Positions 8,081-30,775 of a stretch of DNA of 32,000 nucleotides are shown here, piece after piece. Below the pieces are notes generated by a model. That model was not told the DNA's origin. It worked only from the letters and a program-made list of their open reading frames with translations, and searched no databases. The translations under genes and the position numbers were made by a program. Every line of letters starts with the position of its first letter. Position 1 is the first letter of the stretch. The DNA is from Lachnospiraceae bacterium (GTDB taxonomy: Bacteria > Bacteroidota > Bacteroidia > Bacteroidales > UBA932): assembly GCA_963604455.1 (NCBI GenBank), contig CAVCRL010000009.1, positions 1,817 to 33,816 on the forward strand, read 5' to 3'.

Positions 8081-8480
8081 TGTGGGGAATCCGTACTTTG
8101 ATATCGCTGTACTGATCACAGCGCTATCATCTGGCCACCTGACCTGACTAATGCACGGTATTTAGCGTTGATTGCCAAGTTAATCATTGTCAATGCGTTA
8201 CAAGATACTGGTAGTCAAAACGGAAGGCCAACGTTTCACAACTAATTGATAGTCAGTCGGTGATGCTCCACAGTTTTATAATCAATGTTTTATGGAATCG
8301 TACGCAACTCTGGCTTCACAATTGAAATCAAAGGGATTTCCAGTCATCACGGCGAATCAACAACCAACCGGACTGACCTCACATTTATGTACACTTGAAG
8401 GAGCTTTTCAAATTTATATAAAAGAGGATGTTCTCTTCTCCAGCAATATAAGCCCTTCATTTGTCTAGATGATATAGACT

Positions 8481-9464
8481 TTACCTTTTGAACTTGTCCA
8501 GATTCGCCTTCCAGTCCGCCTCAAAAGACGGGACCGTGGTGGAGAAATTTTCTTTGAAAGAGGCTGGTATGCCCTTGCCATACAAGGTCTTGAGAAAAGA
8601 TTTCACTCCCTCTACCCTATAGAGATCTTCCATATGACAGAAAATGGACTGACCTCCCTGATAGTTTTCAAACACGTAGCGGAACTGCCTGGCGCTGAAA
8701 TCGCAGTCCGAGCGCATCATCCTTATCTCGTCTTCCGAGAAAGAAGGCTTTCTGCCGGGCAGAGAGGTGTACTCAGCGATTCCCTCGTAACACCACATCG
8801 GAAGGTCAACATACTGGTTGTAGTCTATCGAAGCGAAAAAACAATAGTGCGTCAACTCGTGCCAAAGCACATTCTGGGTGTAGTCATCAGAGGAAAACGC
8901 GAATCTGCCATTGAGGGCGATGGCGCGAAGATAATATCCAGACGGAGATATTTCGGATATTGTTATCCCTGCCGTGGTGCTGAAATCATCTCTCCCGGGA
9001 CAAAACTCGGTCATCAACTCATTGAAAGATTTCTGGTCGACCGTCAAATATACCGGGACCTTGCGTCCGTTCATATCAGCTGGATAATAATACTTCCCGA
9101 TTATATCCTCCAAGCGAGGAATAGCCTGTCCTGCAATCGTTTGGCACTTCAGAGCCTTTTTAGTCAATGACTCAGGAAAGTAAAAGATGAAATTGTCATC
9201 CTCCAGTGTTTTCAATCCTGATTCAGGATCACGGCCAAAATCATCGCCGTTATCCCACGGAGCAGGCCTCGGGAAAGGATTGAACCGGGACAAAAGGTCA
9301 TCCAGTCCACCACTGAAAGAATTTATCCAATCAATGGTTTCCTGAGGAACTTCCGCATAGAGAAGCGGTTTCTGGTCTTTTCCCTTGTCGTATATTCTTA
9401 TCAGGGCTAACGCCATCATCACGAACACGAGCAACACGCCCGCGACTGAACCCATACGTCTCAT
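8481..9464 (-). CDS. Membrane-anchored zinc metallopeptidase-like protein (HExxH + downstream Glu, MA-clan / Peptidase_MA_2-like)
   Basis: 327 aa. It has an N-terminal hydrophobic anchor (VAGVLLVFVMMALALIRIY). HELTH is encoded at 8847-8861 (residues 202-206), followed ~21 aa later by WCYEGIAEY, the HExxH...EG.AEY gluzincin arrangement. The ATG lies 1 nt after the upstream gene's stop. Confidence 0.6.
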   Translation of the reverse strand: MRRMGSVAGVLLVFVMMALALIRIYDKGKDQKPLLYAEVPQETIDWINSFSGGLDDLLSRFNPFPRPAPWDNGDDFGRDPESGLKTLEDDNFIFYFPESLTKKALKCQTIAGQAIPRLEDIIGKYYYPADMNGRKVPVYLTVDQKSFNELMTEFCPGRDDFSTTAGITISEISPSGYYLRAIALNGRFAFSSDDYTQNVLWHELTHYCFFASIDYNQYVDLPMWCYEGIAEYTSLPGRKPSFSEDEIRMMRSDCDFSARQFRYVFENYQGGQSIFCHMEDLYRVEGVKSFLKTLYGKGIPASFKENFSTTVPSFEADWKANLDKFKR

Positions 9465-9465
9465 A

Positions 9466-11250
9466 CTAATTCAAGAATATTATGTCCTCAACAGCCTCTT
9501 TCGTGGTGTTGCCAAGGTCCCCGATCCGGAACCCGTCACCAGTGGTTTCACAGAAGAAGTACATATGACCATCCTTGGTGACCAAAGACAGATCAGCCAT
9601 TGACACCAAATCGGAAGACTCTTTGCTTTTGAACGCCACAGCGATCGCGGCGTGGTTTTGTGTCAAGATGTATGCGGTCTTGTACCCGGCCTCACGGAAC
9701 AGCACAGCGGCAAGAACAGCCTTGCAGTCACAATCCCCACGGCCGTCAAACATCGTCTCGTCGGGGAAACGGGCATAATCCCTCGGATTGCCTATCTCCG
9801 GACATTTTTCATCATATTCATACCTGATGTTCGGCATCTGGACAAAGTCAAGGATGAACTGCATCCGCTCAAGCTCGCTCAAACCTTGCGTCCTTGATGC
9901 CTTGTCAATATATTCAAGTACCTTGTGGACCCTTCCATTCTTTTTGCAGTCAGCGAAAAGTTCCTCCGCATTGGCCTTATGCGCCCTGTTCGGATAAAGC
10001 CTGAACGGATTGGAAGCCCGCAAGTCCGCGATCCTCTCAAGGTTGAAAGTGAGGGTAAGATTTCCTTTCAGTTTATGATACAAAGAATCCAGGTCCCAAG
10101 AATATGTCCGCTCAACCTTCCCATCATCAGTATCATCCAGGATCGGGACTTCTTCCTCGTCGTCATCATCCCAGTCCGGCAAGTGATGCTCCTCCTCGTC
10201 ATCCGCATAAGACAGCGCCCAAGGCTCCTTGGTTATGTACCTCTTGTTGACCCAGACTCCTATCAATATCGCCGCCTGAAGAGGGACGAAGTCGCTTCCA
10301 TAGATGAATATAGACACGAGAAGCGCAGCGGATGAAGCTATGACTATCCAGTTGTTCAGCCCGCCAACGCCGGTGTTACGGTCAATCAGCATCAGAAAAT
10401 CATCAAAAGCCTTTCCTTCGAGAGACGCTTCGATCTTCACCTGACGAAGTATCGCCCAGACGGCGAAGTACACGGCCAGCAGCATGGTCGTGAAGCCAAT
10501 CTGCTCACCAAGAGCGGGGAATGAAGCCTTTCCCATCCCTGTCAGGAAGAAAACACAATAGACAATTGAGAAAAGCACCGATGCCGGAAGCGCGGTGTCT
10601 TTCCAAGTCAACCTTTCAGCCAAGGCATCCTCGCTGGCCGGCTTTGGCTGGCGATCCTTGTACAACAGCAGAAACCCTCCCGCACGCGCCGTGACGGAAT
10701 ATTTATTCGGCTTGACTTTTCCCAGCCGCCCTGTCTCGATCACCTTTCCGACAAGGCGGTCGGACGCCGCGGCCGAATCTCCATCCTCGCTGGCAAGAGG
10801 AGGACAGGAATACACATACGAATGCCTCCTCAGCCACAACTCGTACCATATTCCCGAGCCATTGATTCCCGGACGTCCTTTCGCGTCAGTGATGTAGCCC
10901 AGACGCAGGCCGGACTCCCCATAGATGTTGCCGGACAGATCGACCCACCCCTCCTTGCGGACCTCATTTGACAAGTCTGAAGCGGAAGGGTCTTTCCTCA
11001 GGTTGATGAGAGCCAGACCTTTCTCCACATTGGAATTGCCCTGGTAGCGGTTTGCCGGCGGTTGATTGTAATCGTGAAAGACATAAGCGCCAGATGAGAC
11101 GTTGAAAACGACGTCTCCAAAGGTATGGAAGCAACCATCCTCGCCACAATAGGATGTCTTCGTCCTCCTTTTCAGGAGACACACCAACACATACACCGTA
11201 TAAATGACCAACAGGACAACAAGCAGCAGCGCGATCCTTACAAATACCAT
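9466..11250 (-). CDS. Polytopic membrane protein with a C-terminal transglutaminase-like (papain-fold) domain
   Basis: 594 aa, organised as follows:
- an N-terminal TM helix;
- a ~200-aa soluble region;
- a cluster of TM helices at residues ~220-335;
- an extremely acidic linker (DDEEEHHLPDWDDDDEEEVPILDDTDDG);
- FPDETMFDGRGDCDCKAVLAAVLFREAGYKTAYIL...NHAAIAVAF...FFCETTGDG, resembling the transglutaminase-core Cys...His...Asp/Glu pattern. CDC is encoded at 9724-9732. Confidence 0.55.
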   Translation of the reverse strand: MVFVRIALLLVVLLVIYTVYVLVCLLKRRTKTSYCGEDGCFHTFGDVVFNVSSGAYVFHDYNQPPANRYQGNSNVEKGLALINLRKDPSASDLSNEVRKEGWVDLSGNIYGESGLRLGYITDAKGRPGINGSGIWYELWLRRHSYVYSCPPLASEDGDSAAASDRLVGKVIETGRLGKVKPNKYSVTARAGGFLLLYKDRQPKPASEDALAERLTWKDTALPASVLFSIVYCVFFLTGMGKASFPALGEQIGFTTMLLAVYFAVWAILRQVKIEASLEGKAFDDFLMLIDRNTGVGGLNNWIVIASSAALLVSIFIYGSDFVPLQAAILIGVWVNKRYITKEPWALSYADDEEEHHLPDWDDDDEEEVPILDDTDDGKVERTYSWDLDSLYHKLKGNLTLTFNLERIADLRASNPFRLYPNRAHKANAEELFADCKKNGRVHKVLEYIDKASRTQGLSELERMQFILDFVQMPNIRYEYDEKCPEIGNPRDYARFPDETMFDGRGDCDCKAVLAAVLFREAGYKTAYILTQNHAAIAVAFKSKESSDLVSMADLSLVTKDGHMYFFCETTGDGFRIGDLGNTTKEAVEDIIFLN

Positions 11251-11253
11251 AGA

Positions 11254-13683
11254 CTACCCTCCTATCGATTCATCAAGTTCATCCATTTCTGCCTTGGATA
11301 TTCCCAAAGGCACTCCGGCGAGTGAATATGCCAAGTCTCTTCGCCTGTAGAATCCGTAGTACAACGAAAGTTTGTCCGCAAATGACAAGGCGGGGAGCGG
11401 ATCAAGCGGACAATTGCAGACAAGACGCGACTTGATGCCTTCATCAAGTTTCTGCCAGCAAGTAAGCAGGGCGTATTCCGGTGCCGCATCATCTGTGACC
11501 GCATTGGTGTTTCCGAACACCCTCGGAACAATCGAACTCCTTAGTACCGGCGTGTTACCCGACGGCACGGAGAACAACATACCGTTCACCCCGGCCATCT
11601 TCTCAAAAGGAGCAACATTGACATCATCGTCAAGGATGTCCAACATCCGGCCGATGCTGTCGGCCGTGTGGATGTGAAGCTTCGGGGCAAACAACCGGCC
11701 AAGGACAGCGACCAGATCATCCGCATTTGCGGCAGGCGTTCCTCCGCCAGACAAGTCCGCGGCGTCCAGAATCTCCGACTGTGTGAAAGATGATTTCAGA
11801 AGCGCAAGCAGATCTTCTTTTCCCAATTCCGACAAACGTCTCTCACCTTCCCTCAAATGAATCTCAGCTTCCGAAACCGAATTATCATCAATCAGTCTCT
11901 CGCCACAGAACGTTCCTCCGATCAGTGGCTGGTTGAACATCGTTTCCGGAATCACTTCCTTGCCGGACTTCACATCCGGGACAGTCAGTTTGTCACGGAA
12001 CAACGCCAGATAGCCAAGCTGGGCGTCACACTCCTTCACGAGCTCATCGTAGAAGGCACCTTGCTGATCCATCAGGAATTTGGACAGACGCTTGTTGACA
12101 GCAAGCAGAGTCGAGGCAAGCAACCTGTATTTCAATCGCAAGATGCGTTTGAAGTGACGGCGCAGCCTGATGAAGAACTCTATTGTCAATGGAAGGAAAA
12201 ACAGCACCGGAATCCACAGCCACTCGACCGTAGCGAGTCCTCCAAGGTTAATCACCTTTGGAGACACCACACGCAAAACCGGAATGACGGTAAAGACAAG
12301 CAAGATTCCAAGAAGGAAGCACCGGACGAGCAGGCTCAGGACTACAGGTTCCCTTTTGAGGTTCTTGCACAGCCTCTCCATAATCTTGGATGAGGTGTTC
12401 TCCTCCGCGTCAGCCTGACATTTATCATATTCATTCCTCAAATACTCCGGAACGGGAACAATCTCATCGTCTCTCAGGATGACTCCGGCGCGTTTTCTGT
12501 TCAGATACTCCTTCGCCGAATTGAAGACGGACTCCAACTGGGCTATCGTAGGGTACTTGGAAGCCGAGTCGATGAGCGATTTCCGGTAGAGGCTGCGCAA
12601 CAGAGTCTTGAAGCTTTCCGCCGCCTTTTCCCGGTTCTTCCGTATGATACCTGAAAATCTGGCGAGCAGGGCATAGGAAAGGCTCTGCATATAGCGGGTC
12701 AGCCGCGCGGGCGTGAACTTAAGATATTTCCAGTAATAGACCGGGAACAATTCCGCCCTGAACAAATCCCAGACGGGATGTGGATCCGCCTCGCCGTCCA
12801 TCTTCTTCAAATCAACGTCCAGACTGCCACATTCTTCCCGAAGCCGCACGGAAACGGCATCTGCATTGACAGCATCCTCTTCCAGCACCTCACGCACAAT
12901 TCTCCCGGCATATTCATCATCCTTGTTGTCAGCGTCCTTGAATTCCGCAACGAGTTTGTCCAGAATATGTTTAAGCTCAATGCCTCGGTGCCGTTCGCTG
13001 CTGTAGAAAATCGAAGCCGCACCCAGTGAGAATGTTCCGCTGTCCTTTCCTATCCTGTCAAAAAGCCTTTCACATCCTGCACTGACAAAGAACAGGTTCG
13101 TGAGAATCTGGAACAGCAATTCCGTCCGTTGTCCCTCGTCCAGACCGGCGTAAAACCGTGCTCCTTTATACTGCACATCCTGATACGCCACCACACGGTT
13201 GAAATGCTTCGGGCCAAGCTGTTCGTTGAGCATATTCAAATCTTCCAGCATCATAGCGGCCTTCTCGCGTTCCGGCCTGCTGTCCAATTGGTTGATGGTG
13301 CTCGGGATGTATAGTATTCCTGTGATCTCCACACCGAGGTTGGCGTGGTCGGAGATGATCCTTGGGAGATTGTCACGCAAAAGGCCGGGAAGCGGAGCAA
13401 ACACCTCCTGCGTCAGCCTCTCATTCGCTGCGCCAAGGATAACTATCTGGAAATTACCGACTCTATATCCTGCCTTATTGAACGCATTGCAGCAATCCCT
13501 GCCTTCGGCGACCAACTCATCCACAAGAGCCTTGCACGAGGATGCATCCGACACGGCCCTGTCGGACACGTGGAAATATCGCCAGAACGGTTTCAAAGAC
13601 TCCCCTGTGGAATCAAGGAGGCTCCGCAGTTTCCCTGACGAAACCGCAGAGCTTCCCAGATCTATTATCCAAATCGGGAGCAT
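11254..13683 (-). CDS. 809-aa two-TM protein; the N-terminal domain looks like a GTP-motif-degenerate paralogue of the adjacent tubulin-like domain
   Basis: ATG start 1 nt after the tubulin-like gene's stop. Two central TM helices are present (VVLSLLVRCFLLGILLVFTVIPVL; WLWIPVLFFLPLTIEFFI). N-terminal segments parallel the neighbouring protein:
- IWIIDLGSSAVSS vs IFIGLGGSGVNTV;
- RYFHVSDR vs RFLFVDTD;
- FQIVILGAANERLT vs YWVVASCNGGTGSG;
- LGVEITGILYIPS vs PKVGLVLYMPR. Confidence 0.6.
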   Translation of the reverse strand: MLPIWIIDLGSSAVSSGKLRSLLDSTGESLKPFWRYFHVSDRAVSDASSCKALVDELVAEGRDCCNAFNKAGYRVGNFQIVILGAANERLTQEVFAPLPGLLRDNLPRIISDHANLGVEITGILYIPSTINQLDSRPEREKAAMMLEDLNMLNEQLGPKHFNRVVAYQDVQYKGARFYAGLDEGQRTELLFQILTNLFFVSAGCERLFDRIGKDSGTFSLGAASIFYSSERHRGIELKHILDKLVAEFKDADNKDDEYAGRIVREVLEEDAVNADAVSVRLREECGSLDVDLKKMDGEADPHPVWDLFRAELFPVYYWKYLKFTPARLTRYMQSLSYALLARFSGIIRKNREKAAESFKTLLRSLYRKSLIDSASKYPTIAQLESVFNSAKEYLNRKRAGVILRDDEIVPVPEYLRNEYDKCQADAEENTSSKIMERLCKNLKREPVVLSLLVRCFLLGILLVFTVIPVLRVVSPKVINLGGLATVEWLWIPVLFFLPLTIEFFIRLRRHFKRILRLKYRLLASTLLAVNKRLSKFLMDQQGAFYDELVKECDAQLGYLALFRDKLTVPDVKSGKEVIPETMFNQPLIGGTFCGERLIDDNSVSEAEIHLREGERRLSELGKEDLLALLKSSFTQSEILDAADLSGGGTPAANADDLVAVLGRLFAPKLHIHTADSIGRMLDILDDDVNVAPFEKMAGVNGMLFSVPSGNTPVLRSSIVPRVFGNTNAVTDDAAPEYALLTCWQKLDEGIKSRLVCNCPLDPLPALSFADKLSLYYGFYRRRDLAYSLAGVPLGISKAEMDELDESIGG

Positions 13684-13684
13684 A

Positions 13685-16600
13685 CTAAGCCAGATACTTG
13701 TTTGACAGGAATTTAGAGACAGTCTCCAACCGTTCGTTCAGGACACGGAGAATGTCGCCGATGGTCTCCTTCTCCATCTTTCCGGCACCCTCCCATTTTG
13801 CGTTAAGGTCGTTCTTCAGGGACCGGACCGCTTCCTGATACTTCTGCCGCAGAAGATCGGAGTCAAGGAAATTGACGTTCCTCACCAGATCAGAGATCAA
13901 GTTGGAGAATCGGCCTGTCGAATAATGTTCTGAAAAGCCGGCGAACAATTCAGTCATCATATGCTCAGGCCTGTCAATGGCAACGGTGTGGTAGAACACC
14001 CTGTCCCCGTCAGTCACCTTAAGCTCAATCTTCTCATTGTCCACGAGAGACAGTGACGCGGAAGTAGCGAACTTCGCGATCATTCCATCGAATATCACCG
14101 GTGTGTCGGCATAGTGTCCGGCGTTGTATGTTTCCGTTCCTTTGCGCATAAAGTGAGAGAATGTCTCTCCAAGCTGGTTCATAAGCAGATACTTTGTGAA
14201 CACGATGAGTTCCGGCTTGATCTCCTTAGGCAGGACGATGTTGTCGGCATTTCCTCCAGAAGCGGCGAACGCCTGATGGAAATGGTAGAACACCTTGTTC
14301 TGGCACCTGTCATATTCATTCTTGATGCTTTGGTACATATCATAGTACTCGAAGGAGAGTCCGATTTTCGTGACGATCTTGTACATCACAGACGGATTCT
14401 GACTGTCAAGCATCTTCGTCTTTCCCGCACTGGAGGCCTCAAGGAACACATCCTTGACCACTCCTTCCGGACCGACGCAGAACGCCCTGTCGATGACACG
14501 CCCGGTTCTCTTCGCTTTGCTGTACGGGAAGAACACGGCTGGCTGGGTCTTCTGCCTGATGGTATGACGGGCCTCATTGTTCAGTTCGGAGAAGAAATTG
14601 GCGAGAGTCTTCTCGTACCACTGCTTGCTCACCGTCTCATTCTGATGCAGCAACGCTTTCATTGTGCCGACAGTGTAGTCAAGAAGATCCTCGACGACTC
14701 GTTTGAAGTCCGTCTTGCTTGTGTTGGTGAACAAATGGCTTTTATCATCAACAACGTATTTCTCCTGAATCATCCGCTCGCCATAGAGGCTGATCATCTG
14801 ACTGAACATTCCCTCCAGAGAGCAGGACATATCTCCGTTCCGAAGTGGCTTGTACCCCTCACCAGGGACATAGTCTGAGGTGTGGCCGATGATCAGGCCA
14901 TACCACTCGGAGAATTGGTTGCCATCCTCTATCCAGCCATATCCATCCACATATTCAGTGATATCCGGCACGAACACAGAGGTCACATCCAGCTTTGTGG
15001 CGTAGAAGGACCTCGCCAGCGAGGTGTAGCCTTGCGCCGCACCCTTGTCACCATTCAACACGGCGGTCGCCTCGGCGACGAGTTTGCGGATATGCGTGAT
15101 GATACGGTCGATTATGCCACGGTCGCCGTAGGCAAGCTCGCGGATCATATCAAAGGCCTCTTCCGCCAGAATCACCTTGACGCTTGCCCTGACCCAATCC
15201 CTAAGACGTTCGAAGAAGATGGACACATCATTGGAATTGTTTCCTGTAAGCCTCTCCTTGAGAGTGATCTGAATGGCATTCCTGTACAGCTCATCCAACT
15301 CCCCTTCTATGCTGTCACGGTTCTCCACCATAGCCTTCCGGCTTGGCCGTATCCCCTCAAGCACAGCGGTGTTGGTGTCAGTGGTATAAGCCAGATAGAG
15401 TTCCTGGCAGTACGAATCCAGATCCTGTAGTATAGACATCACATACTGGAGACCGTGCTTACGGCAATTGTCCTCCGTCCAGTCCCACAGTTCCCGCTCC
15501 ATTGCCTTGCGGGTCTTGTCCTTTTCCTCCCCGCGACGCTTGATGGACTTCTCGATGGAGTCTATGACACTTCTGGCCTCCTCAATGGACACGTTGGAAG
15601 GCAACTTGCTGACGACCTTGTTGTCGCTGTCCCTGATGACATTGTCCGGCATATCCTCATCCAGCATCTCCACTGCCATCGCGTTTATGGTACGGAAATA
15701 TGAATCCTTCCCGGCGCCGGACTCAAACAGGGAACTCTTGATGATGGTGTCAAACACGGAGCGCATCAGCTTGTCTCGCTCCTCAAACGAATCAACCGGA
15801 GCGCCAATGATGCCGTAGCGCAGCATCTCGTACCTCACACGCAACGACACATAGTTCTCGAACTGCTCATCCGGTTTGCGCAAGGCCATATATCCCATAG
15901 GCACAAGGAAGTTTGCCGCATCAGTGGCCACCTCGCCATCCTCATAGTTGTCAAGGAACGACTTGAAACCTCCGGCACCTTTGCCACTATGAATATAAAA
16001 CATCAACTCGGCGGTGTTGGAATACATCTTCTCAATGTCACCCATATTGCTGTTCCGATCAGTATGATAGTCAATAGGGATGCAGAACTCGAACGGGCGG
16101 TATGGCATCTTATCATCGAAAAGTGTGTAATCGTCCACCATAGCCATCCTATGGAACATCAAGTTCTTCGGACTCTCCTTCGCCCATTTCTGGAAAGCCT
16201 CGATCTCCTTGAACACCGCATAGGCATTGCGAGGGTATTTTTCATTGTCGGAGTTCATATTCATATAAATCCGAGGCATATACAGGACAAGTCCGACTTT
16301 CGGGTTGCCTTTGTCCACGTGGGTACGGTGTATCATATTCACCAAATACAACACATCCAGGACAGTACCGCTGCCGGTTCCACCGTTGCAACTGGCCACG
16401 ACCCAATAATGAATCACATTCCTCGCGCTGTCAATCTCATCCTGGTTCAGCTCATTGATGCAAGTCTGAAGCTTGTCGGTGAACTTGTCCACCTTGCGTC
16501 CAAACGCGATGCGGGACTTGAGGCGAAGGGCGCCGGCTCCAAACGAAAGGTCACGGTTGTCCATACTCTCGGCGACCATTGCCGGACAAGCCTCGATAAT

Positions 16601-16921
16601 GCGCCGGTTGATCTTAAGCTCAGGCGCGTACTTCGCCTCATTGTAGCTGATGTACGGATTTATGTCCCCCAGATTCAGCAACTCCACGTCATTGATGAAA
16701 TCTATCCTTCCTCCTTCGTACAGGTTGCGGTAAGTCTCATTCGCCTCCGCCACATCACGGCTGTCCGTGTCCACAAAAAGGAAGCGGTAAGTCTCGTTCA
16801 TCACCTGAAGACGGCTCTTCATTTCCGTCCCCCTCGTGCGTTCATAGACCTTGTACTTGATTTGGGAAACGGTGTTGACTCCGGAACCACCCAAACCGAT
16901 GAAGATGTGTTTCTCTGCCAT
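13685..16921 (-). CDS. Giant (1078 aa) tubulin/FtsZ-superfamily GTPase-like protein (Tubulin_2 / FtsZ-like type)
   Basis: The N-terminal IFIGLGGSGVNTV (GLGGSG encoded at 16880-16897) resembles the T1 loop. VVASCNGGTGSGTVLDVLYLV (NGGTGSG encoded at 16367-16387) is the tubulin signature [SAG]GGTG[SAT]G of the T4 loop. An ~800-aa, largely helical C-terminal extension of unknown function follows. Confidence 0.75.
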   Translation of the reverse strand: MAEKHIFIGLGGSGVNTVSQIKYKVYERTRGTEMKSRLQVMNETYRFLFVDTDSRDVAEANETYRNLYEGGRIDFINDVELLNLGDINPYISYNEAKYAPELKINRRIIEACPAMVAESMDNRDLSFGAGALRLKSRIAFGRKVDKFTDKLQTCINELNQDEIDSARNVIHYWVVASCNGGTGSGTVLDVLYLVNMIHRTHVDKGNPKVGLVLYMPRIYMNMNSDNEKYPRNAYAVFKEIEAFQKWAKESPKNLMFHRMAMVDDYTLFDDKMPYRPFEFCIPIDYHTDRNSNMGDIEKMYSNTAELMFYIHSGKGAGGFKSFLDNYEDGEVATDAANFLVPMGYMALRKPDEQFENYVSLRVRYEMLRYGIIGAPVDSFEERDKLMRSVFDTIIKSSLFESGAGKDSYFRTINAMAVEMLDEDMPDNVIRDSDNKVVSKLPSNVSIEEARSVIDSIEKSIKRRGEEKDKTRKAMERELWDWTEDNCRKHGLQYVMSILQDLDSYCQELYLAYTTDTNTAVLEGIRPSRKAMVENRDSIEGELDELYRNAIQITLKERLTGNNSNDVSIFFERLRDWVRASVKVILAEEAFDMIRELAYGDRGIIDRIITHIRKLVAEATAVLNGDKGAAQGYTSLARSFYATKLDVTSVFVPDITEYVDGYGWIEDGNQFSEWYGLIIGHTSDYVPGEGYKPLRNGDMSCSLEGMFSQMISLYGERMIQEKYVVDDKSHLFTNTSKTDFKRVVEDLLDYTVGTMKALLHQNETVSKQWYEKTLANFFSELNNEARHTIRQKTQPAVFFPYSKAKRTGRVIDRAFCVGPEGVVKDVFLEASSAGKTKMLDSQNPSVMYKIVTKIGLSFEYYDMYQSIKNEYDRCQNKVFYHFHQAFAASGGNADNIVLPKEIKPELIVFTKYLLMNQLGETFSHFMRKGTETYNAGHYADTPVIFDGMIAKFATSASLSLVDNEKIELKVTDGDRVFYHTVAIDRPEHMMTELFAGFSEHYSTGRFSNLISDLVRNVNFLDSDLLRQKYQEAVRSLKNDLNAKWEGAGKMEKETIGDILRVLNERLETVSKFLSNKYLA

Positions 16922-16941
16922 ATTGCTATTCTGTAAATATT

Positions 16942-18495
16942 TTACTTTATCCAGCGAATCTTATATTTCTCTATCGTGATGGGGGCGTGCCTCGCGATAA
17001 CAGGATGCTGATGGATGCCATATTTCACTCCGCTCTTGAATGACGAGCCCTTGGTCAAGGTAGCCACATAATCAGGATGTTTCATCGGACGGACAAACGG
17101 ATTGTAGCGTCTCACGTCAATCCGGATTGCCCAGTCACTGTCCGGCACGGCCAAGAAAGAGGCACCCTTGCCCAAATCCACCTTATCCAGATTGTTCGCC
17201 TTTTTCTTTTCCGTAACGGGGGTACCTTCTTTTGAGACTTCAAACTTGCCGTTGATGCGATAAAAATCAGACCGATTACGTAAGAAGGCCTGGATCACCA
17301 TCATTATGTACAGGATGACAAGCACGGCAATCAGACAACAAAGCCATAAAGGGAGCGGATAACAGAACACGGTACGGCTCACCGGAGCGGCAGCACGCAT
17401 CGTAGGAGCCGCAAAGCCCAATTTGCCCAGTTCAGCCTCATAGGGGACATCAAACGAGGCTTCCGCAATAACATCACCGGCAAATTTCCGAAACGATGGG
17501 CAAAGCACGCTGTTCCCCTGATGGCGGAACTTTCCTGCAGCCAGTTTCACTTCCTCCTCGTTCGCATTCTTAGGTAACTTTGATTTGAATTCGTACCCTT
17601 CGGCCGTCGAGCCGACCGAATCCACACGCAAGACATCATACACAGGATTGGGCCTCCAGGACACTTTTATGTCAAGATTTCCATCAACATCCATAGAAGG
17701 TGCTATCGAAAAACCGTCCGGTTCAATCTTGCCTGCGACCAGAGCATAGAACTTGTCCAAAAGGATAGCGTTCTTCCGCTGTGTGAACCAGTCAGACAGA
17801 GCTTTGCCGTTGGCAATCGGAACGTGGCTGAAGCCGAACCGTTTCGGGAACACGCTGCGGACCCTCTCAAGGTCTCGTCCGCTTCCGGGAAGCTGGAGAG
17901 CGAACACATAGACGTCGTTCCCCGCCTGCTCAGTCGCGAACCTCCGAGCCACGCCATCCCAGTCCTCGCGTCCCCTGCGGGCCGCCGAAGGGTCGTGAAG
18001 GAAGTCCGTGATGATGAAGACAAACTTCAAACGGCTGCGGTCTATCTGTTTCATATCATCCGCAAGATAGTGCAGCATATTGTCAAGGTCTGTCCATTTG
18101 AAGTATTTCTCTTTCTCGTAGGCTGTCGTTGGCGTGTCATAGATATGTCCCGCATAGTCGATCAGGTTTGCGATGGTCTCCGCGCTTACCTTTCCCGCGC
18201 TTCCCACCTCATTTACCGCCTCTCCGCCGAACTTGATGATGGACACATAATCCCCCTGCTGAAGCGAGCGGAAAAACTCACCCAACGCCGGGACCACCGT
18301 CTCCTTGAACCTCCCCATCGTACCCGACACATCAATCGCGAAGATATAATCCGCCCTCTGCCCCTCAAGTTCCTTCCCGAACTTCTCCATAAGCATAGGA
18401 TAATCAGCCCTCAAGGCCTCCATTCCCCCAACCTGAGAGAACAGCGGTGCCGCAACGAGCGTCAATGTGATCAGTAGAGTAGTTATTTTCTTCAT
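16942..18495 (-). CDS. Secreted, single-pass membrane-anchored von Willebrand factor A (vWA) domain protein
   Basis: 517 aa, organised as follows:
- a signal peptide (MKKITTLLITLTLVAAPLFSQ);
- a vWA MIDAS-type motif, YIFAIDVSGTMG (DVSGT encoded at 18319-18333), with a later FVFIITDFLHD strand;
- a strongly hydrophobic TM segment (FCYPLPLWLCCLIAVLVILYIMMVIQAF) at residues ~377-405;
- a ~110-aa beta-rich C-terminal tail. Confidence 0.75.
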   Translation of the reverse strand: MKKITTLLITLTLVAAPLFSQVGGMEALRADYPMLMEKFGKELEGQRADYIFAIDVSGTMGRFKETVVPALGEFFRSLQQGDYVSIIKFGGEAVNEVGSAGKVSAETIANLIDYAGHIYDTPTTAYEKEKYFKWTDLDNMLHYLADDMKQIDRSRLKFVFIITDFLHDPSAARRGREDWDGVARRFATEQAGNDVYVFALQLPGSGRDLERVRSVFPKRFGFSHVPIANGKALSDWFTQRKNAILLDKFYALVAGKIEPDGFSIAPSMDVDGNLDIKVSWRPNPVYDVLRVDSVGSTAEGYEFKSKLPKNANEEEVKLAAGKFRHQGNSVLCPSFRKFAGDVIAEASFDVPYEAELGKLGFAAPTMRAAAPVSRTVFCYPLPLWLCCLIAVLVILYIMMVIQAFLRNRSDFYRINGKFEVSKEGTPVTEKKKANNLDKVDLGKGASFLAVPDSDWAIRIDVRRYNPFVRPMKHPDYVATLTKGSSFKSGVKYGIHQHPVIARHAPITIEKYKIRWIK

Positions 18496-18515
18496 AAGAG
18501 TGGTTCTAATTGCTA

Positions 18516-18523
18516 CAAAGATA
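18516..18523 (-). promoter_or_regulatory. Candidate -7 box (TATCTTTG) upstream of the vWA gene
   Basis: The reverse complement of 18516-18523 is TATCTTTG (TAnnTTTG), 21-28 nt upstream of the vWA ATG (18495). No clean -33 TTTG is seen at the expected spacing. Confidence 0.3.
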
Positions 18524-18598
18524 GGAAAAATAATCTATTCTGTCATTGTTGTTTTCCATTGTTTTCACATTAATATCACATTCCCCATAGGTTGGAAA

Positions 18599-18977
18599 GT
18601 CTCAGTACCGCTCTCGCAGTAGACTAAATGAACGAAATGAAGAAGATTCAGGATCAGAGTGTCATCGAGTCTCAATACCGCTCTCGCAGTAGACTAAATG
18701 AACAATGCCAATCAAAACCGAACGCTCGGCGGCTGCACGTCTCAATACCGCTCTCGCAGTAGACTAAATGAACACACAGGAATTCCCCGCAAAACTGCTG
18801 CTAATGTCTCAATACCGCTCTCGCAGTAGACTAAATGAACACGTATCATGTCAGCGCAGATGAACGGAATCTTGTCTCAATACCGCTCTCGCAGTAGACT
18901 AAATGAACTCGACGGCGCAACTTGCAATGTTGAGGGAAGCGTGTCTCAATACCGCTCTCGCAGTAGACTAAATGAAC
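18599..18977 (-). CRISPR. CRISPR array of 6 x 35-nt repeats and 5 spacers (35, 35, 32, 33, 34 nt)
   Basis: Repeats occupy 18599-18633, 18669-18703, 18739-18773, 18806-18840, 18874-18908 and 18943-18977, reading gtctcaataccgctctcgcagtagactaaatgaac on the plus strand. Only the first (cas-distal) repeat carries a substitution (A7G), consistent with the leader lying on the cas2 side. On the minus strand the repeat reads GTTCATTTAGTCTACTGCGAGAGCGGTATTGAGAC. It ends in ATTGAGAC, which resembles the ATTGAAA(C/G) 8-nt crRNA 5'-handle, so minus-strand transcription is inferred. Confidence 0.95.
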
Positions 18978-19454: not shown

Positions 19455-19751
19455 TCAGCAAATAGCCACATTGTCCAAATTACGCCGCTTGTCAGGCAAT
19501 CGTACTATTTTCGTGTAGCAATTCATACACAATGAGTAATAAATCACACTATCTTCCTTGAGGTCAATTATTTCGGCAACTTTAGCCTCAAGATCCTCAA
19601 ATTGCCTGTCAGTCATCATACACTCAAAAACACTGAAGTTCGCGCGCACACCATACCTTTCGAGAAGTTTTCCCACCTTCTCGCGCCGTTTGTTGTCTGC
19701 TACATCATAGGCAACAACACAAAAATTCTTCTTTGCACGCATACTCACCAT
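19455..19751 (-). CDS. cas2: CRISPR-associated endoribonuclease Cas2
   Basis: 98 aa. The N-terminal beta-strand with the catalytic Asp (FCVVAYDVADNKRREKVGKLLERYG...VNFSVFEC) is typical of Cas2. The gene overlaps the RT-cas1 stop by 7 nt. Confidence 0.9.
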   Translation of the reverse strand: MVSMRAKKNFCVVAYDVADNKRREKVGKLLERYGVRANFSVFECMMTDRQFEDLEAKVAEIIDLKEDSVIYYSLCMNCYTKIVRLPDKRRNLDNVAIC

Positions 19752-22024
19752 TTTGCTATATACGGCCTATACATCGCTCCATTATCAATATAATTCGCGA
19801 TTTCCAGGACTTGAGTGTTTATTATATCTGTCAACCGTGTTTCGACACCACGATATTTCTCATAACGGTTGAGTCGCTCAAAAATATTCTTTACCAATAG
19901 TTTCCGTGTCGAAGCATCCAACTTTCCATCGGACATCGCCAATGGCTCTTTCTTTTGGATAAGCGAGATCACGACCCGTTCTACGGCTTGGGCACGGAAT
20001 AACTCAATGATGTCATAGACGAAAGTAGGCTTACCCTGTTGCGGAATATGAATAACACTTATGGTAGGGTTCAACCTCCTCCAAAGCAGAGCCTGCCACA
20101 CACGAGGATAAATCATCGCATAGCCATAATTCAACATACAATTCATCAAATCAGTGGCACCTTGTCTGGTTCTCTTCTCAAAGTCAACATCATCATCCGA
20201 AATCAGTTCCCTTATGTAAGCCCAATACAACTCGGCGCAATGAGCCTCCTGCGCCATCATCTTGGCGCGATACTCCGGGTTATCGACGCAGTCCATAACC
20301 TTAGCCAAACATTCCGCTATGCGCGGAAGAGCATCTTCATAAACATCACAAAGTTTCTTCGAGGTCGTCTTGTGATACTTATGGAAATACTTCATCAGGT
20401 TCAACTGATTCTTCATCTTTCCTTGCAATATCTTTGCAGCCAAACGACTCTGACAGGCAAGCGTCATTGAAGATTGCTTCTGCCACAACGAAGTGCTTAT
20501 GTGTCTCTGCGTCATCAGGCTGCCTTGGTGCATTCCGGACCAGGAGAAAAAGTGAATTCCAATCTTGTGATTCACACAATATTTGACAAGGTTACTGGAG
20601 ATAGTCACGCCCTCGCACATAACACAGATGCGCTCCAAATTAGAAATCGAAGGGATCTTCTTTTTCTTTCCAGCCACTCTCATCACCAATCCATATTCAC
20701 TTGCCCCTAAATATGTTCCGGGAGTTGTTATCACTAGATCCGTTGTCTCACCCTCTTTCTTCCTATATTCAAGTTTCTTCTGCTGAATAGCCTTCTTTAC
20801 TTCTTTGTCCCCATCAGACTTCGCTTTATTACTAGCCTTCAAGTAGGAATAATGTTGAAGCAACCCATCCCTCAAAGACTCTGCCCTAAGAACATTATCC
20901 GGAGAAATGAAGCTGATCTCCTTCAAAGCATCACGTAATACCCACTTGTTTGGAATCTGGGAATATTGCTCCGTCACAACATCACAAAGATGCCCTATCA
21001 GGATTTTGTCCAAATAAGCCAGATCATCTTTGGTGACCAAAGGAACATAGTACCTCAATATCGCCGAAATGCTCTCTTTACCTTTCTTATCAAAGCCTTG
21101 CCCGTCCCATTCAAGTTGACGGATGCGCTGCCTCAACTCATCTTTTTTCTTTTCTGACAAATAGATATGACGATTGTCAATCATCACTCCAAGGAATTCA
21201 AATCCATCCTTAATCAATGAGACAGACGGAGGATTCAGCGTCAATTTGAGACGTTCAGTCAGAAAAGCCGAGCCTTCAGTCAGCCAAGCTTCGGCATGCT
21301 CCTGAGATTCGCAACAGATTATGAAGTCATCGGCATAACGGACATATTGGCTCGTTCTGGACAGCACATATTGGTCAAACGGCGTGAGATAATAATTTGC
21401 CAGCAATGGTGAAAGCACAGCTCCCTGAGGGACACCGACGGTCACGTCTTGCCAATGTGAGGATTTGTTGACAACTCCCATTTTCACACACAATTGGAGC
21501 AGCGACAGCATATCCTCATCAGCAATCAGAGGTGTCAAACGCTTAAACAACAATGAATGATCAATGTTGTCAAAATAGTTATCGATGTCAAGGCGCAATA
21601 AGTACGGTGTCTTTTTGCTCTGGCAACAGTACCTTGCGGCTTTAACCGCTTTTGTGTGTCCCTTGCCGGGACGATAGCCATAACTATTCGGAACAAACAC
21701 TTTCTCGAATCTCGGTTCCACCAAAATTTTCACCGCCTGCTGGACTACCTTGTCACGCACGCTCAGCAGTCCCAAACGACGAACTTCATTCGATTTTTTA
21801 GGAATATTCACCCGCAAATACGGCTCAGGACGCCACCTCCGCTGACGCAACTCCTCAAGCAACTCCGTCAAATAGGTGCCAAGCCGCTCTTCAAACTGCA
21901 GCAACGACACTCCATCCACTCCACCCGCAGAGCCTTTCTGTTTGACAATTTTCCACGCGTCAAACAGAAGAGACTGCGAGCAGAGTCTGGAATAAAGAGG
22001 TGGTCTGGTTGAGCCTGATGCCAT
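19745..22024 (-). CDS. cas1: Reverse transcriptase-Cas1 fusion protein
   Basis: The N-terminal half has group-II-intron-like RT motifs (RLDIDNYFDNIDH; GVPQGAVLSPLLAN; YVRYADDFIICC). The C-terminal half is Cas1 (VMCEGVTISSNLVKYCVNHKIGIHFFSWSG; NCMLNYGYAMIY; SVIHIPQQGKPTFVYDIIELFR). The first ATG is at 22024; the track start at 22054 is a TTG overlapping cmr6. Confidence 0.9.
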   Translation of the reverse strand: MASGSTRPPLYSRLCSQSLLFDAWKIVKQKGSAGGVDGVSLLQFEERLGTYLTELLEELRQRRWRPEPYLRVNIPKKSNEVRRLGLLSVRDKVVQQAVKILVEPRFEKVFVPNSYGYRPGKGHTKAVKAARYCCQSKKTPYLLRLDIDNYFDNIDHSLLFKRLTPLIADEDMLSLLQLCVKMGVVNKSSHWQDVTVGVPQGAVLSPLLANYYLTPFDQYVLSRTSQYVRYADDFIICCESQEHAEAWLTEGSAFLTERLKLTLNPPSVSLIKDGFEFLGVMIDNRHIYLSEKKKDELRQRIRQLEWDGQGFDKKGKESISAILRYYVPLVTKDDLAYLDKILIGHLCDVVTEQYSQIPNKWVLRDALKEISFISPDNVLRAESLRDGLLQHYSYLKASNKAKSDGDKEVKKAIQQKKLEYRKKEGETTDLVITTPGTYLGASEYGLVMRVAGKKKKIPSISNLERICVMCEGVTISSNLVKYCVNHKIGIHFFSWSGMHQGSLMTQRHISTSLWQKQSSMTLACQSRLAAKILQGKMKNQLNLMKYFHKYHKTTSKKLCDVYEDALPRIAECLAKVMDCVDNPEYRAKMMAQEAHCAELYWAYIRELISDDDVDFEKRTRQGATDLMNCMLNYGYAMIYPRVWQALLWRRLNPTISVIHIPQQGKPTFVYDIIELFRAQAVERVVISLIQKKEPLAMSDGKLDASTRKLLVKNIFERLNRYEKYRGVETRLTDIINTQVLEIANYIDNGAMYRPYIAKW

Positions 22025-22035
22025 TATATCACGTT

Positions 22036-23241
22036 TTAGATTCTTTTCAAGCAACCATAACCGACATTCGTCTTGGCTCCAATTCCAATATCTTCAAGAA
22101 TTGATGTGCAGAGATTCAATTTATTCTCCGAAGTGATTCTTACTGTGCCTTCTTGATAATCAGTAAATTTATAACAGAACGAAAATATTATCCCAGAGCA
22201 AACCTTCACAATCTTGATAGGAACAGGTGGATCCAAAGGTCCGCCAGTATGAGGAGTCAGGTAGTCGTCTGTTATAACTTTAGATATTCCTTCTGGTCCA
22301 ACAACCAATGCATCAGCAAAAACATCCGCACCATTCGTACCAGCAAGGCCAAACATATTATTTCTAAGCCGTAAAATAAGGTCTCTGCCTCCTTCTGATA
22401 ATGTAATATTTGTAAATACGGAAAGTTCTTTCAGTATATTAAAAATATATTGCAAACGAGACTCGTCCTTATCATCATTAGGGAACACACTTCTTATCAC
22501 ACCTTTTACAGAAGATCCTGGAATCACTGGTAAACCAGAGGTATAGTCGAACTGCAAACCAGTCTTTATCGCATCATTATCAGGGATTCCGTGTGACAAA
22601 CCGCCTCCGATTATCAGTCCTGGAGCGATAACTTTCATTCTTTGGGAAACAAAGTCGCCGGCCAAAGATTCAATTATTTGCATATTCACACGCAATGAAG
22701 GATTCAATGCCCTTGAACCTTGTGACGGGATATATGTACTGTGGCTAAAACGATATCCAAGATTAGCCGTGGCATCTACTTCCTCAACTTCTATTCTATG
22801 TATTTCTCCATAGTTTACACGAGGACTCGGACTCCATCCTTCAACGTCACTTGTAGCAAATAGCCTCAACGCTATTTTTAGCACAGTTGCAGCATTCAGC
22901 ACATCCTTCTCAAATGTTTGCCTTTGAGAAGAAGCCGTGTTATGCACATACCAACCAGACAAAGACAAAGTCCGAAGATCATTGTACCTTTGACCCGATG
23001 CCCGGATTAGATAATTCTTTATCACAATCGGAATTCCTCTCCTAACTTTCGAGTCAGAAACGGGATTCTCATAAACAGCCAAAGCAGCAGCAAATCCACA
23101 TTGCGAGACAGTAGCGCCAAACGAAGAAAAACTTGATTTGAACTCTTTCGCATAGGTTCCTCTGCTGTCAACAACGCCGACCTCTGTCAAAGATTCAACA
23201 GCAAACCCGATTTGCTCATATGAAGGTTTAAATGGCTTCAT
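22036..23241 (-). CDS. cmr6: Type III-B RAMP protein Cmr6 with an N-terminal Cmr5-like (small subunit) extension
   Basis: 401 aa. The C-terminal ~260 aa carry RAMP motifs (PVIPGSSVKGVIRSVF; the glycine-rich end GIGAKTNVGYGC). The N-terminal ~135 aa are helical, with SSFGATVSQCGFAAALAVY and VLNAATVLKIALRLFA resembling the Cmr5 motifs (P.mI..nGL.qtlAFL ; a...l.W.kRfA). There is no separate cmr5 ORF between cmr4 and cmr6. Confidence 0.75.
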   Translation of the reverse strand: MKPFKPSYEQIGFAVESLTEVGVVDSRGTYAKEFKSSFSSFGATVSQCGFAAALAVYENPVSDSKVRRGIPIVIKNYLIRASGQRYNDLRTLSLSGWYVHNTASSQRQTFEKDVLNAATVLKIALRLFATSDVEGWSPSPRVNYGEIHRIEVEEVDATANLGYRFSHSTYIPSQGSRALNPSLRVNMQIIESLAGDFVSQRMKVIAPGLIIGGGLSHGIPDNDAIKTGLQFDYTSGLPVIPGSSVKGVIRSVFPNDDKDESRLQYIFNILKELSVFTNITLSEGGRDLILRLRNNMFGLAGTNGADVFADALVVGPEGISKVITDDYLTPHTGGPLDPPVPIKIVKVCSGIIFSFCYKFTDYQEGTVRITSENKLNLCTSILEDIGIGAKTNVGYGCLKRI

Positions 23242-23965
23242 TATTTCCAGAATTTGAGTAAACCGTTATCTTACAAAGTCCATAGCCGACAGTAGCATTC
23301 GCCCCAATCTGAACAACAGTATTGCTGATGGCTTTGACAAAAGACTCATCTATATCTCCTTCATATAAAACAAATGCCGCAAGGCGACTTCTCCTTGGAA
23401 GCACCTGTTCATACCATAAGTTTGCGCTGATTCCATTCTCAAGGTAATTTCTTGCTATTACCGGAAGATGCTCATCATCAGCAAAATTCTGCAAGAATTT
23501 ATTTGCATCAAGCATAATTTCTTCATCTCCGACCATAATTCTCGTCATACCTTTGCTGCACTCAATTGCATCTTGAATAGCACTTCCCCCACCAAATAAT
23601 TGTGCCTCATTTCTCAACTCATCAAGGACTTCCTGACAAGACACCAATCGATATGGATAATTTTCGATGTTAGTAATATCCGGCATAGCCAACAGCATTG
23701 CATCAGTAAATCGATATGCGCCAGGTTTGCAGGCCAATGCGTTCTGGTCATCAACTTTTTTCCCGAATATTTTTTCAGTGATGTCATTATGCAATAACTT
23801 TGAACAATGCTCACGAAGAGCTCCTTTCAAACTTGATGAGAAGATACAGGGGATCCCTGTGACCGGATCCCTTTGAATGAGCTTGTCGATAAGACCATCG
23901 TTGTCTTTTCCACTGCCTACCTGCAAATTGCTTATGCAGTCAATTATTAATAATGATACATTCAT
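23228..23965 (-). CDS. cmr4: Type III-B RAMP backbone subunit Cmr4
   Basis: 245 aa. LQVGSGKDNDGLIDKLIQRDPVTGIPCIFSSSLKGALREH matches the Cmr4/Csm3 N-terminal motif, including the Asp at the position of the target-RNA-cleaving residue. The C-terminal glycine-rich loop is IGANATVGYGLC. Confidence 0.85.
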   Translation of the reverse strand: MNVSLLIIDCISNLQVGSGKDNDGLIDKLIQRDPVTGIPCIFSSSLKGALREHCSKLLHNDITEKIFGKKVDDQNALACKPGAYRFTDAMLLAMPDITNIENYPYRLVSCQEVLDELRNEAQLFGGGSAIQDAIECSKGMTRIMVGDEEIMLDANKFLQNFADDEHLPVIARNYLENGISANLWYEQVLPRRSRLAAFVLYEGDIDESFVKAISNTVVQIGANATVGYGLCKITVYSNSGNNEAI

Positions 23966-23983
23966 AATCTGACATTTTATTCG

Positions 23984-26480: not shown

Positions 26481-26481
26481 A

Positions 26482-27786: not shown

Positions 27787-27806
27787 CTTGAATCTCGGTT
27801 AAAATC

Positions 27807-28781: not shown

Positions 28782-29247
28782 CCTGTTTATTTTTAATCAC
28801 TTGCCTGCCGCTATTCGCCTTGTAGAGTTCGTCGAAGGTCTTGAAATCCTTTGCCCAATGAGCGAAGTATTCGGACAACTTCGAAGGATCCATATCTTTC
28901 TGCTTTTCGTTCGAGCCTTTCCAGACTTTGTCAAAAAGCTCCACTTTGGCCTTGAAATTATCAAAACATCTCTTTGTCCTCGAAGATTCCTTGCATAGTT
29001 CTTCCAAACAGAGGTTCTTGTCCATCAATGCCTTATTGTCATCTTCTAATTTTTTAACGCGTTGTCTTGTCCGATTGGGCACAACGTTATAATGCATCGC
29101 CAAAAGCAAAAGCAGGATCAAGACGGCAAATGCCCAGTTCACAAGGCACGAGTGTTCCTTCAATAATTCACTTGCGTCAAAGCAAACGAGTACCACGATG
29201 CCCACGACAACCGTCAGAAAGCATCCAAATAATTTACTGTTCATCAT
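28771..29247 (-). CDS. Small two-TM / coiled-coil protein of unknown function embedded in the type III-B operon
   Basis: 158 aa. It has TM helices LFGCFLTVVVGIVVLVCF and WAFAVLILLLLLAMHY, then a charged helical tail (RQRVKKLEDDNKALMDKNLCLEELCKESSR...). Its ATGATGA start overlaps the corA stop by 4 nt, and its stop overlaps the cas6 start by 11 nt, which argues for a real, translationally coupled gene. Confidence 0.65.
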   Translation of the reverse strand: MMNSKLFGCFLTVVVGIVVLVCFDASELLKEHSCLVNWAFAVLILLLLLAMHYNVVPNRTRQRVKKLEDDNKALMDKNLCLEELCKESSRTKRCFDNFKAKVELFDKVWKGSNEKQKDMDPSKLSEYFAHWAKDFKTFDELYKANSGRQVIKNKQDDE

Positions 29248-30743: not shown

Positions 30744-30775
30744 AACTTTTGGGTTTATATTTTCAGAATATTTTC

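Follow-up and report, generated by a model that had tools for sequence, protein, structure and literature searches.

The stretch of DNA analysed here, referred to below as the window, is 32,000 nucleotides (nt) long and comes from contig CAVCRL010000009.1 (positions 1,817 to 33,816, forward strand) of the assembly GCA_963604455.1, which is named as a Lachnospiraceae bacterium and placed by GTDB within the Bacteroidales (UBA932). Our subject is a gene on its minus strand that encodes a tubulin-like protein of 1,078 amino acids (aa), here termed Tub1078, together with the four genes that accompany it. The open reading frame (ORF) starts with ATG and ends with a stop codon at 13685–13687; a preliminary description of the window gave its coordinates correctly, leaving the minus strand and the operon context unmentioned, and it is this context that carries most of the functional information on the protein. 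A database search returned 327 homologues at E≤1e-5, and the full-length ones (~1,045–1,100 aa) range from 93% down to 30% identity, every one of them with the PF13809 domain, so that Tub1078 is to be regarded as a real gene. It is the second of five minus-strand genes separated by intergenic gaps of 20, 1, 3 and 1 nt, encoding in order an exported vWA protein, the tubulin-like protein, an 809-aa protein with two transmembrane (TM) segments, a transglutaminase-like protein and an HExxH protein. The features of this module are listed here with the evidence used for each.

8476..18556, minus strand: limits of the five-gene module, where nucleotide homology starts and stops, with unrelated flanks on either side.
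18516..18523, minus strand: TATCTTTG, a promoter-element candidate that precedes the vWA start codon by 20 nt.
16942..18495, minus strand: gene 1, exported vWA protein of 517 aa (sub-threshold Pfam VWA and VWA_2 matches; hydrophobic segments).
13685..16921, minus strand: gene 2, Tub1078, 1,078 aa, FtsZl1/Tubulin_2 family (ORF list and translation, Pfam, homologues, AlphaFold2).
11254..13683, minus strand: gene 3, protein of 809 aa, here termed U809 (AlphaFold2, Foldseek, hhalign).
9466..11250, minus strand: gene 4, polytopic protein of 594 aa with a C-terminal transglutaminase-like thiol-peptidase core (Pfam, hydrophobic segments).
8481..9464, minus strand: gene 5, N-terminally anchored protein of 327 aa with HELTH (202–206) and E227 (HExxH motif).

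The five genes are a discrete, self-contained and mobile 10-kb module set in unrelated flanks, and what is new here is the definition of this Bacteroidales module around a long-known FtsZl1-type protein. A second contig (L082), whose tubulin-like protein is 93% identical to Tub1078, aligns to the window at 18556–8476 only, with 86.8% identity. It carries the same five genes with other neighbours downstream (GH31 fragment, AraC-type regulator, TonB-dependent receptor), whereas the window has glucose-6-phosphate isomerase there. Nucleotide homology is likewise confined to the module in loci L001, L002, L003, L005, L008 and L010, and the 127 nearest flanking ORFs across 32 loci carry 146 Pfam families with no recurrent neighbour. 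When 79 loci from species-representative genomes were surveyed with tblastn, genes 1 to 4 proved to keep their order and orientation in 69–74 of them, and gene 5 in 41, down to 23–30% identity. Most of the loci belong to Bacteroidales of the rumen and gut (Paludibacteraceae, Muribaculaceae, Alistipes, Bacteroidaceae and Tannerellaceae), and a pattern-limited scan places the module in ~80–90 of 185,579 species genomes. A search for flanking repeats of at least 9 nt, direct or inverted, found none around the module, and scans for sigma-70 promoters and terminators stayed at background level. The candidate element TATCTTTG sits in a conserved 60-nt module leader and is kept in L082; it fits TAnnTTTG, the consensus of the Bacteroides −7 element.

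Two copies may be mentioned for their hosts. In a metagenome-assembled genome of Fibrobacter sp. (L061) the first four module genes occur at 23–31% identity and the HExxH gene was not detected; this copy, outside the Bacteroidota, fits a horizontal spread of the module between bacteria of the rumen and gut. The 4,858-nt contig JAFZXW010000062.1 (L004), binned as Candidatus Methanomethylophilaceae, encodes a tubulin-like protein of 52% and a U809 of 45% identity, and its archaeal bin reflects either mis-binning or cross-domain transfer.

Tub1078 itself belongs almost certainly, as an ordinary member, to the FtsZ-like-1 family (FtsZl1, Pfam Tubulin_2), a branch of the tubulin/FtsZ superfamily. 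PF13809 (Tubulin_2) matches residues 6–366 with E 2.5e-37 (129.4 bits, the cutoff being 27) and covers model positions 1–354 of 356. The classical Tubulin/FtsZ family, PF00091, reaches residues 6–63 only, at 23.7 bits and under its cutoff of 33, and no FtsZ_C or Tubulin_C domain was found with Pfam. In terms of sequence the tie to the classical FtsZ and tubulin members is barely detectable: neither whole-family nor N-domain HMMER profiles gave a significant match among PDB sequences, and hhalign of the Tub1078 family against Escherichia coli FtsZ aligned only the stretch from T1 to T2, with E 0.07. Plus-strand ORFs of 182–315 aa that lie antisense to the gene (14114–14878, 14882–15430 and 15989–16936) are most likely its shadow ORFs. 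The parts of the protein discussed below are as follows.

15824..16921, minus strand: N-terminal tubulin/FtsZ-type domain binding guanosine triphosphate (GTP), residues 1–366 (Pfam, Foldseek).
16880..16897, minus strand: T1 loop GLGGSG, residues 9–14 (conservation, hhalign).
16763..16783, minus strand: S2 strand and T2 loop FLFVDTD, residues 47–53 (compare FFAVNTD of FtsZ).
16511..16540, minus strand: T3-like loop GAGALRLKSR, residues 128–137 (conservation; comparison with FtsZ by eye).
16367..16387, minus strand: T4 tubulin signature NGGTGSG, residues 179–185 (conservation).
15938..15982, minus strand: candidate T7/H8-equivalent helix KGAGGFKSFLDNYED, residues 314–328 (order of secondary structure in the AlphaFold2 model).
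13688..15823, minus strand: C-terminal region, residues 367–1078, with helical bundles to ~644, a mixed α/β part at ~645–1000 and terminal helices (AlphaFold2).

The AlphaFold2 model of Tub1078, built on an alignment of 92 sequences, has a mean predicted local distance difference test score (pLDDT) of 89.9 and a predicted template modelling score (pTM) of 0.73. Against the PDB it gave 170 Foldseek matches at E≤1e-3, the top 50 being β- and γ-tubulin, TubZ (2xka, 2xkb) and CetZ1 (4b46), with probability 1.00, E of ~1e-5 and TMt of 0.31–0.47. The predicted fold is that of tubulin, not a Rossmann or P-loop fold of some other kind. A library of viral structures likewise placed phage FtsZ/tubulins on top, short ones only and with no giant relatives among them. 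Within the N-domain the model shows strands S1–S6, an H7-like helix (296–311) and an S7-like strand (342–348).

Conservation of the loops was followed in two samples, one of 92 aligned full-length homologues and one of 94 distant family representatives of at least 900 aa, with ~24–55% identity over the N-terminal domain; equivalences with the loops of E. coli FtsZ were drawn from motif, spacing and the order of secondary structure in the model. The T1 glycines G9, G11, G12 and G14 are invariant in the 92 homologues and present in 90–91 of the distant 94, the rest being gaps, and hhalign pairs FIGLGGSG of Tub1078 with VIGVGGGG of FtsZ. The same alignment sets the T2 stretch against AVNTD of FtsZ, and the distant set retains D51 in 92/94, T52 in 84/94 and D53 in 79/94. 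A family-specific insert of ~40 residues (~85–126) precedes the T3-like loop, which has the same spacing as GAGANPEVGR of FtsZ and in which G128, R133 and R137 are found in all 94 distant sequences and A129 in 90. As for T4, G180, G181, T182, G183 and G185 are invariant in the 92 homologues, and the distant counts are 94/94 for G180 and T182, 93/94 for G181 and G183, and 90/94 for S184. Further along, the distant set keeps P216 at the T5-like position (92/94), D284 of IPID, comparable to IPND of FtsZ, at the T6-like position (82/94), A304 in the H7-like helix (82/94) and G343 in the S7-like strand (92/94).

Residues 1 to ~350 are, in short, a tubulin-type nucleotide-binding domain with loops T1 to T4 conserved. 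The preliminary description had read GLGGSG and NGGTGSG directly from the translation, the second as the tubulin signature, had likened FLFVDTD to the corresponding FtsZ strand, and had on this basis assigned the protein to the tubulin/FtsZ superfamily with its GTP-binding signatures intact. All of this is borne out by the Tubulin_2 match, by the leading Foldseek matches and by the two glycine motifs, both of which are conserved among homologues (for T4, in the 92 close and at least 90 of the 94 distant sequences). It had put the GTPase core at about the first 300 residues, which is a little short, the Pfam match running over residues 6–366.

Beyond this core the protein departs from the classical pattern. 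The helix at 314–328 carries D324, E327 and D328 around N325; N325 is found in 81/94 of the distant set, S321 in 62/94 and an acid flanking N325 in 56/94. In the superfamily the T7 loop (NxDxxD/E) bears a catalytic acid that stimulates GTP hydrolysis in the adjoining subunit. An acidic residue at the candidate T7 position, which the preliminary description had proposed to look for, is present in this protein but is not a family-wide invariant. Its statement that the canonical C-terminal layout is missing agrees with the model, where the H7-like helix is followed by a single strand (342–348) and then by ~300 residues of helices. The TMt values to tubulins fit a match to the N-domain only, and later strands (648–692 onward) could, in the model, complete a sheet of the S7–S10 type.

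The size of the protein, which had been called unusually large for the family, is on the contrary what the family prescribes. An exhaustive search with the N-domain (residues 1–375) found 763 clusters (50% identity) at E≤1e-3, and of the 150 best matches 139 were new representatives, whose lengths have their median at 1,077 aa and their upper quartile at 1,114 aa. Makarova and Koonin, who named the FtsZl1 family in 2010, described a founding member of 1,051 aa (PMC2875224); the long extension is therefore the norm of FtsZl1/Tubulin_2 proteins. The same authors reported inserts between T1 and T4, and a T6–H7 region and C-terminal domain that could not be confidently aligned (PMC2875224), and Santana-Molina et al. 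(2023) likewise classed Tubulin_2 proteins as FtsZ-like, divergent and provided with long extensions (PMC9871819). The FtsZl1 architecture of an FtsZ-like domain at the N-terminus, a helical stretch and a C-terminal globular part, over ~1,000–1,150 aa, fits Tub1078. The remainder of the protein had been taken to be mostly helical, which is true of ~351–644 and the terminal helices, but not of the mixed α/β part at ~645–1000. This C-terminal region is kept at full length across the family. It contains no known domain in Pfam, NCBIfam, PADLOC or PHROGs, and its matches among PDB sequences are all sub-threshold (E 0.05–0.57), mostly to designed helical bundles.

The gene that follows Tub1078 in 74 of the 79 loci encodes U809, which consists of an α/β N-domain, helices, a TM hairpin at ~445–505 and a C-terminal domain of ~300 aa, and which has no family match. 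In its AlphaFold2 model (pLDDT 84.7) the order of the N-terminal β-α-β elements parallels the tubulin N-domain. Foldseek matches it to FtsZ of Staphylococcus aureus and Bacillus subtilis (5mn5_B, 2rho_B) and to γ- and other tubulins with probability 0.92–1.00 and a root-mean-square deviation of 6.6–9 Å over 236–322 columns, at E values of 0.02–0.18, none reaching 1e-3; for the two FtsZ structures and γ-tubulin the probability is 0.99–1.00. Using diverse alignments, hhalign of U809 against the Tubulin_2 N-domain gave E 0.013 over 188 colinear columns, in which FQIVILGAANE stands opposite YWVVASCNGGTGSG, ILYIP opposite LVLYMP, TELLF opposite AELMF, and SLGAAS opposite PMGYMA, both glycines of this last block being invariant in the close homologue sets. 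For reversed and unrelated controls E was 0.04–0.37, with 0.04 for the reversed one, and comparison of the U809 family with narrow tubulin alignments was not significant. Because 0.013 only slightly beats these controls, we do not claim homology between U809 and tubulin. No glycine-rich T1 or T4 loop was found in U809, and a profile search for distant relatives returned already known proteins only. U809 is a possible degenerate tubulin-like paralogue without GTP-binding loops, a proposal on which we find ourselves evenly divided. Foldseek also gave low-confidence matches of its helices and hydrophobic hairpin to dynamin-like proteins and α-pore-forming toxins. A reading of its start, IIDLGSS, as the phosphate-1 motif of actin and HSP70 was set aside, as its glycine is not kept among homologues and the model resembles FtsZ/tubulin rather than actin.

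All four partners of Tub1078 are membrane proteins, as judged from TM and hydrophobic segments. The vWA gene, placed 20 nt upstream of that for Tub1078 and kept beside it in 74 of the 79 loci, encodes a protein with a signal peptide, a complete metal-ion-dependent adhesion site (MIDAS), one TM helix at ~375–403 and a cytoplasmic tail of ~115 aa; all 72 homologues keep the MIDAS residues D55, S57, S/T59, T135 and D164, which places this extracytoplasmic, metal-dependent site of ligand binding under strong constraint. The gene 4 product matches Transglut_core at 22.4 bits, just under the cutoff of 23, with a predicted triad of C509, H533 and E568. Of its 70 homologues, 33 have C at position 509, 29 have S and 8 have D; 57 keep H533, and all have E or D at position 568. 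The gene 5 product, with at most a weak NCBIfam hint and detected in 41 of the 79 loci, is from its motif a probable zinc metallopeptidase; the 41 homologues retain H202 in 30, E203 in 41, H206 in 31 and E227 in 33. With the changes at position 509 of the gene 4 product, and with one histidine missing from about a quarter of the gene 5 homologues, some subfamilies may carry inactive or altered peptidases. By these residue counts the catalytic positions of both peptidase-like proteins are intact in the window and variably retained in other loci. None of the five module proteins contains a GxxxxGK[ST] P-loop motif.

In the window the module stands between sugar-metabolism genes and an array of clustered regularly interspaced short palindromic repeats (CRISPR), beyond which lies a type III-B locus with RT-Cas1. 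The array (18591–18977) has six repeats with the core GTCTCAATACCGCTCTCGCAGTAGACTAAATGAAC and a period of 67–70 nt, and is situated ~100 nt upstream of the vWA gene. An RT-Cas1 fusion (19745–22054; 769 aa, TTG start) is followed by the type III-B genes Cmr4, Cmr3 and Cas10/Cmr2, within 22036–31591 on the minus strand. A 401-aa protein at 22036–23241, matched by Cmr5 models at residues 9–135 and by Cmr6 models at 195–399, looks like a Cmr5–Cmr6 fusion. The guanine-plus-cytosine (GC) content of the CRISPR-Cas locus (0.42–0.45) is below that of the rest of the window (about 0.51–0.54), and this difference, with the limits of the module, led us to reject a common island for module and CRISPR-Cas. 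A Parabacteroides locus (L021), whose module copy has 32% identity, shows a second case of CRISPR proximity: two repeats at its positions 3–107, with three mismatches to the repeat of the window, lie ~3 kb upstream of its vWA gene.

The reading that we favour overall, with about equal measures of trust and doubt, is that of an FtsZl1 GTPase at work in a membrane module with an accessory role in stress or conflict response and not in core cell biology, and we lean towards this role because the module is mobile and patchy. The mechanism that we put forward for it is tentative and more apt to be revised than upheld. Tub1078, a soluble protein, would bind GTP and assemble on the cytoplasmic side of the inner membrane, where U809 would tether the assembly, perhaps as a nucleotide-free tubulin-like subunit in an active/inactive pair like α/β-tubulin. 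Through the membrane the assembly would be linked to the exported vWA protein, whose MIDAS would recognise a ligand in the periplasm or at the surface; the two peptidases, transglutaminase-like and HExxH, would process a component or a target, and the output would be a local envelope change.

Several results weigh against this reading. None of the five proteins has a match in PADLOC-DB v2 at E≤0.01 or in PHROGs, and the genes flanking the module are mostly housekeeping, with few that are defence-like (TIR, HEPN/nucleotidyltransferase, one RT-Cas1, MzaA and PD-T4-2); the accessory role is kept uncertain on account of both. The GC content of the module is 0.48–0.52, against 0.54 for housekeeping genes and 0.42–0.45 for CRISPR-Cas. 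As far as the model goes, no canonical S7–S10 domain is evident in Tub1078, and as far as the alignment goes, the family has no invariant acidic T7 residue, so that canonical head-to-tail polymerisation with self-activated GTP hydrolysis is putative. To these must be added the modest Foldseek E values of U809 and the closeness of its reversed control.

The first alternative to be considered is an anti-phage or anti-invader system of the abortive-infection type, in which the periplasmic vWA domain would sense a component of the invader, the GTPase would serve as thresholding switch or polymer, and the two-TM partner and the peptidases, as effectors, would damage the envelope. A discrete, relocated and patchily distributed module would suit such a system, as would the CRISPR array and type III-B locus directly beside it in the window and the handful of defence-like genes in other flanks. 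Tubulins with C-terminal helical extensions beside membrane-bound extracellular vWA proteins have in fact been predicted to act as conflict systems by Kaur et al. in 2020 (PMC7159879), and U809 has helices weakly like those of α-pore-forming toxins and dynamin-like proteins. Against it stand the absence of matches in the two catalogues and the mostly housekeeping flanks. The adjacency to CRISPR is not kept at nucleotide level in relatives, the GC content is unlike that of the CRISPR-Cas locus, and the components are constant, without the variable-effector pattern typical of conflict systems. Nor was the DO-GTPase core of the published tubulin-containing systems found with Pfam, NCBIfam or the P-loop motif. 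We consider this alternative unlikely, with enough in its favour to be taken seriously. A bolder proposal, in which Tub1078 and U809, one active and one nucleotide-free, would form a membrane-anchored heterodimer that polymerises on the inner membrane upon binding of a ligand by the periplasmic vWA protein, the module being an unrecognised tubulin-based system of envelope defence in gut Bacteroidales, strikes us as improbable.

The membrane character of the module can also be read without reference to defence. With four membrane partners, an extracytoplasmic vWA domain and a GC content near that of the host genes, it might be a membrane-remodelling or surface-organelle machine serving vesicles, envelope upkeep, or the support of a surface or motility apparatus. 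Makarova and Koonin predicted membrane remodelling for the family as a whole (PMC2875224), Sll0445 of Synechocystis is linked to pilus-assembly proteins and phototaxis (PMC9880817), and the weak dynamin-like matches of U809 point the same way. A core function of this kind sits poorly, however, with a module found in ~80–90 of 185,579 genomes and placed in unrelated flanks even at 93% protein identity. The cyanobacterial operon, moreover, has other partners (a tubulin with FtsA-like and DivIC-like proteins), and two peptidases are not obviously required. On balance we think this alternative rather doubtful. A conventional cytoskeletal homologue, acting in division like FtsZ or in DNA segregation like TubZ and PhuZ, would share the N-domain fold and GTP-binding motifs, but is very improbable given the missing FtsZ_C and Tubulin_C domains and the sub-threshold PF00091 match, neighbours that are membrane proteins and peptidases with no division, plasmid or partition genes among them, the patchy distribution, and a viral fold library that holds short phage tubulins only and no giant relatives.

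The favoured reading, an FtsZl1 GTPase in a membrane module, can be set against what is known of related systems. The likeness to the FtsZl1 proteins as first described is close: a tubulin-like N-domain with T1 and T4 and inserts between them, a length of ~1,050–1,150 aa with a helical middle and a C-terminal globular part, nothing recognisable as a canonical C-terminal domain, a vWA gene alongside, and operon partners associated with the membrane. FtsZl1 operons were reported to encode vWA proteins and membrane proteins, and a part in membrane remodelling was predicted for them (PMC2875224). The set of U809, transglutaminase-like and HExxH proteins, in contrast, matches no partner family in that paper, compared by description, and the module contains no P-loop GTPase, OmpA-like protein or Ser/Thr kinase. 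The only true Bacteroidales case in the 2010 set is BACCAC_02057 of Bacteroides caccae (913 aa), which stands beside a COG4870 cysteine protease. FtsZl1/Tubulin_2 is the most divergent branch of the tubulin/FtsZ superfamily, and Tub1078, as a typical member, leaves the picture of the family unchanged. What the module offers is a compact 10-kb experimental handle from abundant gut and rumen bacteria, with its own leader, a high-confidence structural model, four membrane partners with conserved active-site residues and, as a hypothesis, a degenerate tubulin-like subunit encoded next door.

Experimental data are available for a single Tubulin_2 protein that we could find, Sll0445 of Synechocystis, which co-purifies with pilus-assembly proteins and whose mutants have impaired phototaxis and altered photosystem II fluorescence (PMC9880817); no biochemistry or solved structure of an FtsZl1/Tubulin_2 protein published since 2010 was found in the searchable literature. 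The Sll0445–Sll0447 system differs from the present module in having FtsA-like and DivIC-like partners, not vWA, peptidases and U809, and is distant from the Bacteroidales subfamily. The tubulin-containing GAP1-N2/DO-GTPase systems are alike in combining, in a multi-gene and membrane-proximal setting, a tubulin that has a C-terminal helical extension with a neighbouring membrane protein that has an extracellular vWA domain. In Firmicutes they have two tubulin-domain genes per system. They are defined by DO-GTPase and GAP1, often with FNIII-repeat proteins, and are reported from Firmicutes and Actinobacteria (Kaur, Burroughs, Iyer and Aravind, 2020; PMC7159879). The hosts here are instead Bacteroidales, and the five proteins have no P-loop motif or GTPase family match and no Pfam match to FNIII.

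With FtsZ, TubZ, CetZ and tubulin, Tub1078 shares the GTP-binding fold and the loops T1 (GxGGxG), T2 ((D/N)TD), T3 (GAG...GR) and T4 (GGTG(S/T)G). It differs from them in the ~40-residue insert before T3, in ~700 extra residues and in having neither an evident S7–S10 domain nor an invariant T7 acid. The comparison with α/β-tubulin and BtubA/B depends on U809, whose pairing with Tub1078 is putative: unlike the subunits of those proteins, U809 lacks the T1 and T4 loops and has a TM hairpin that anchors it in the membrane. Should U809 be tubulin-like, the module would resemble both in encoding two diverged tubulin-fold subunits side by side, and the pairing, if true, would be an independent bacterial active/inactive tubulin pair and the first mechanism for the FtsZl1 family.

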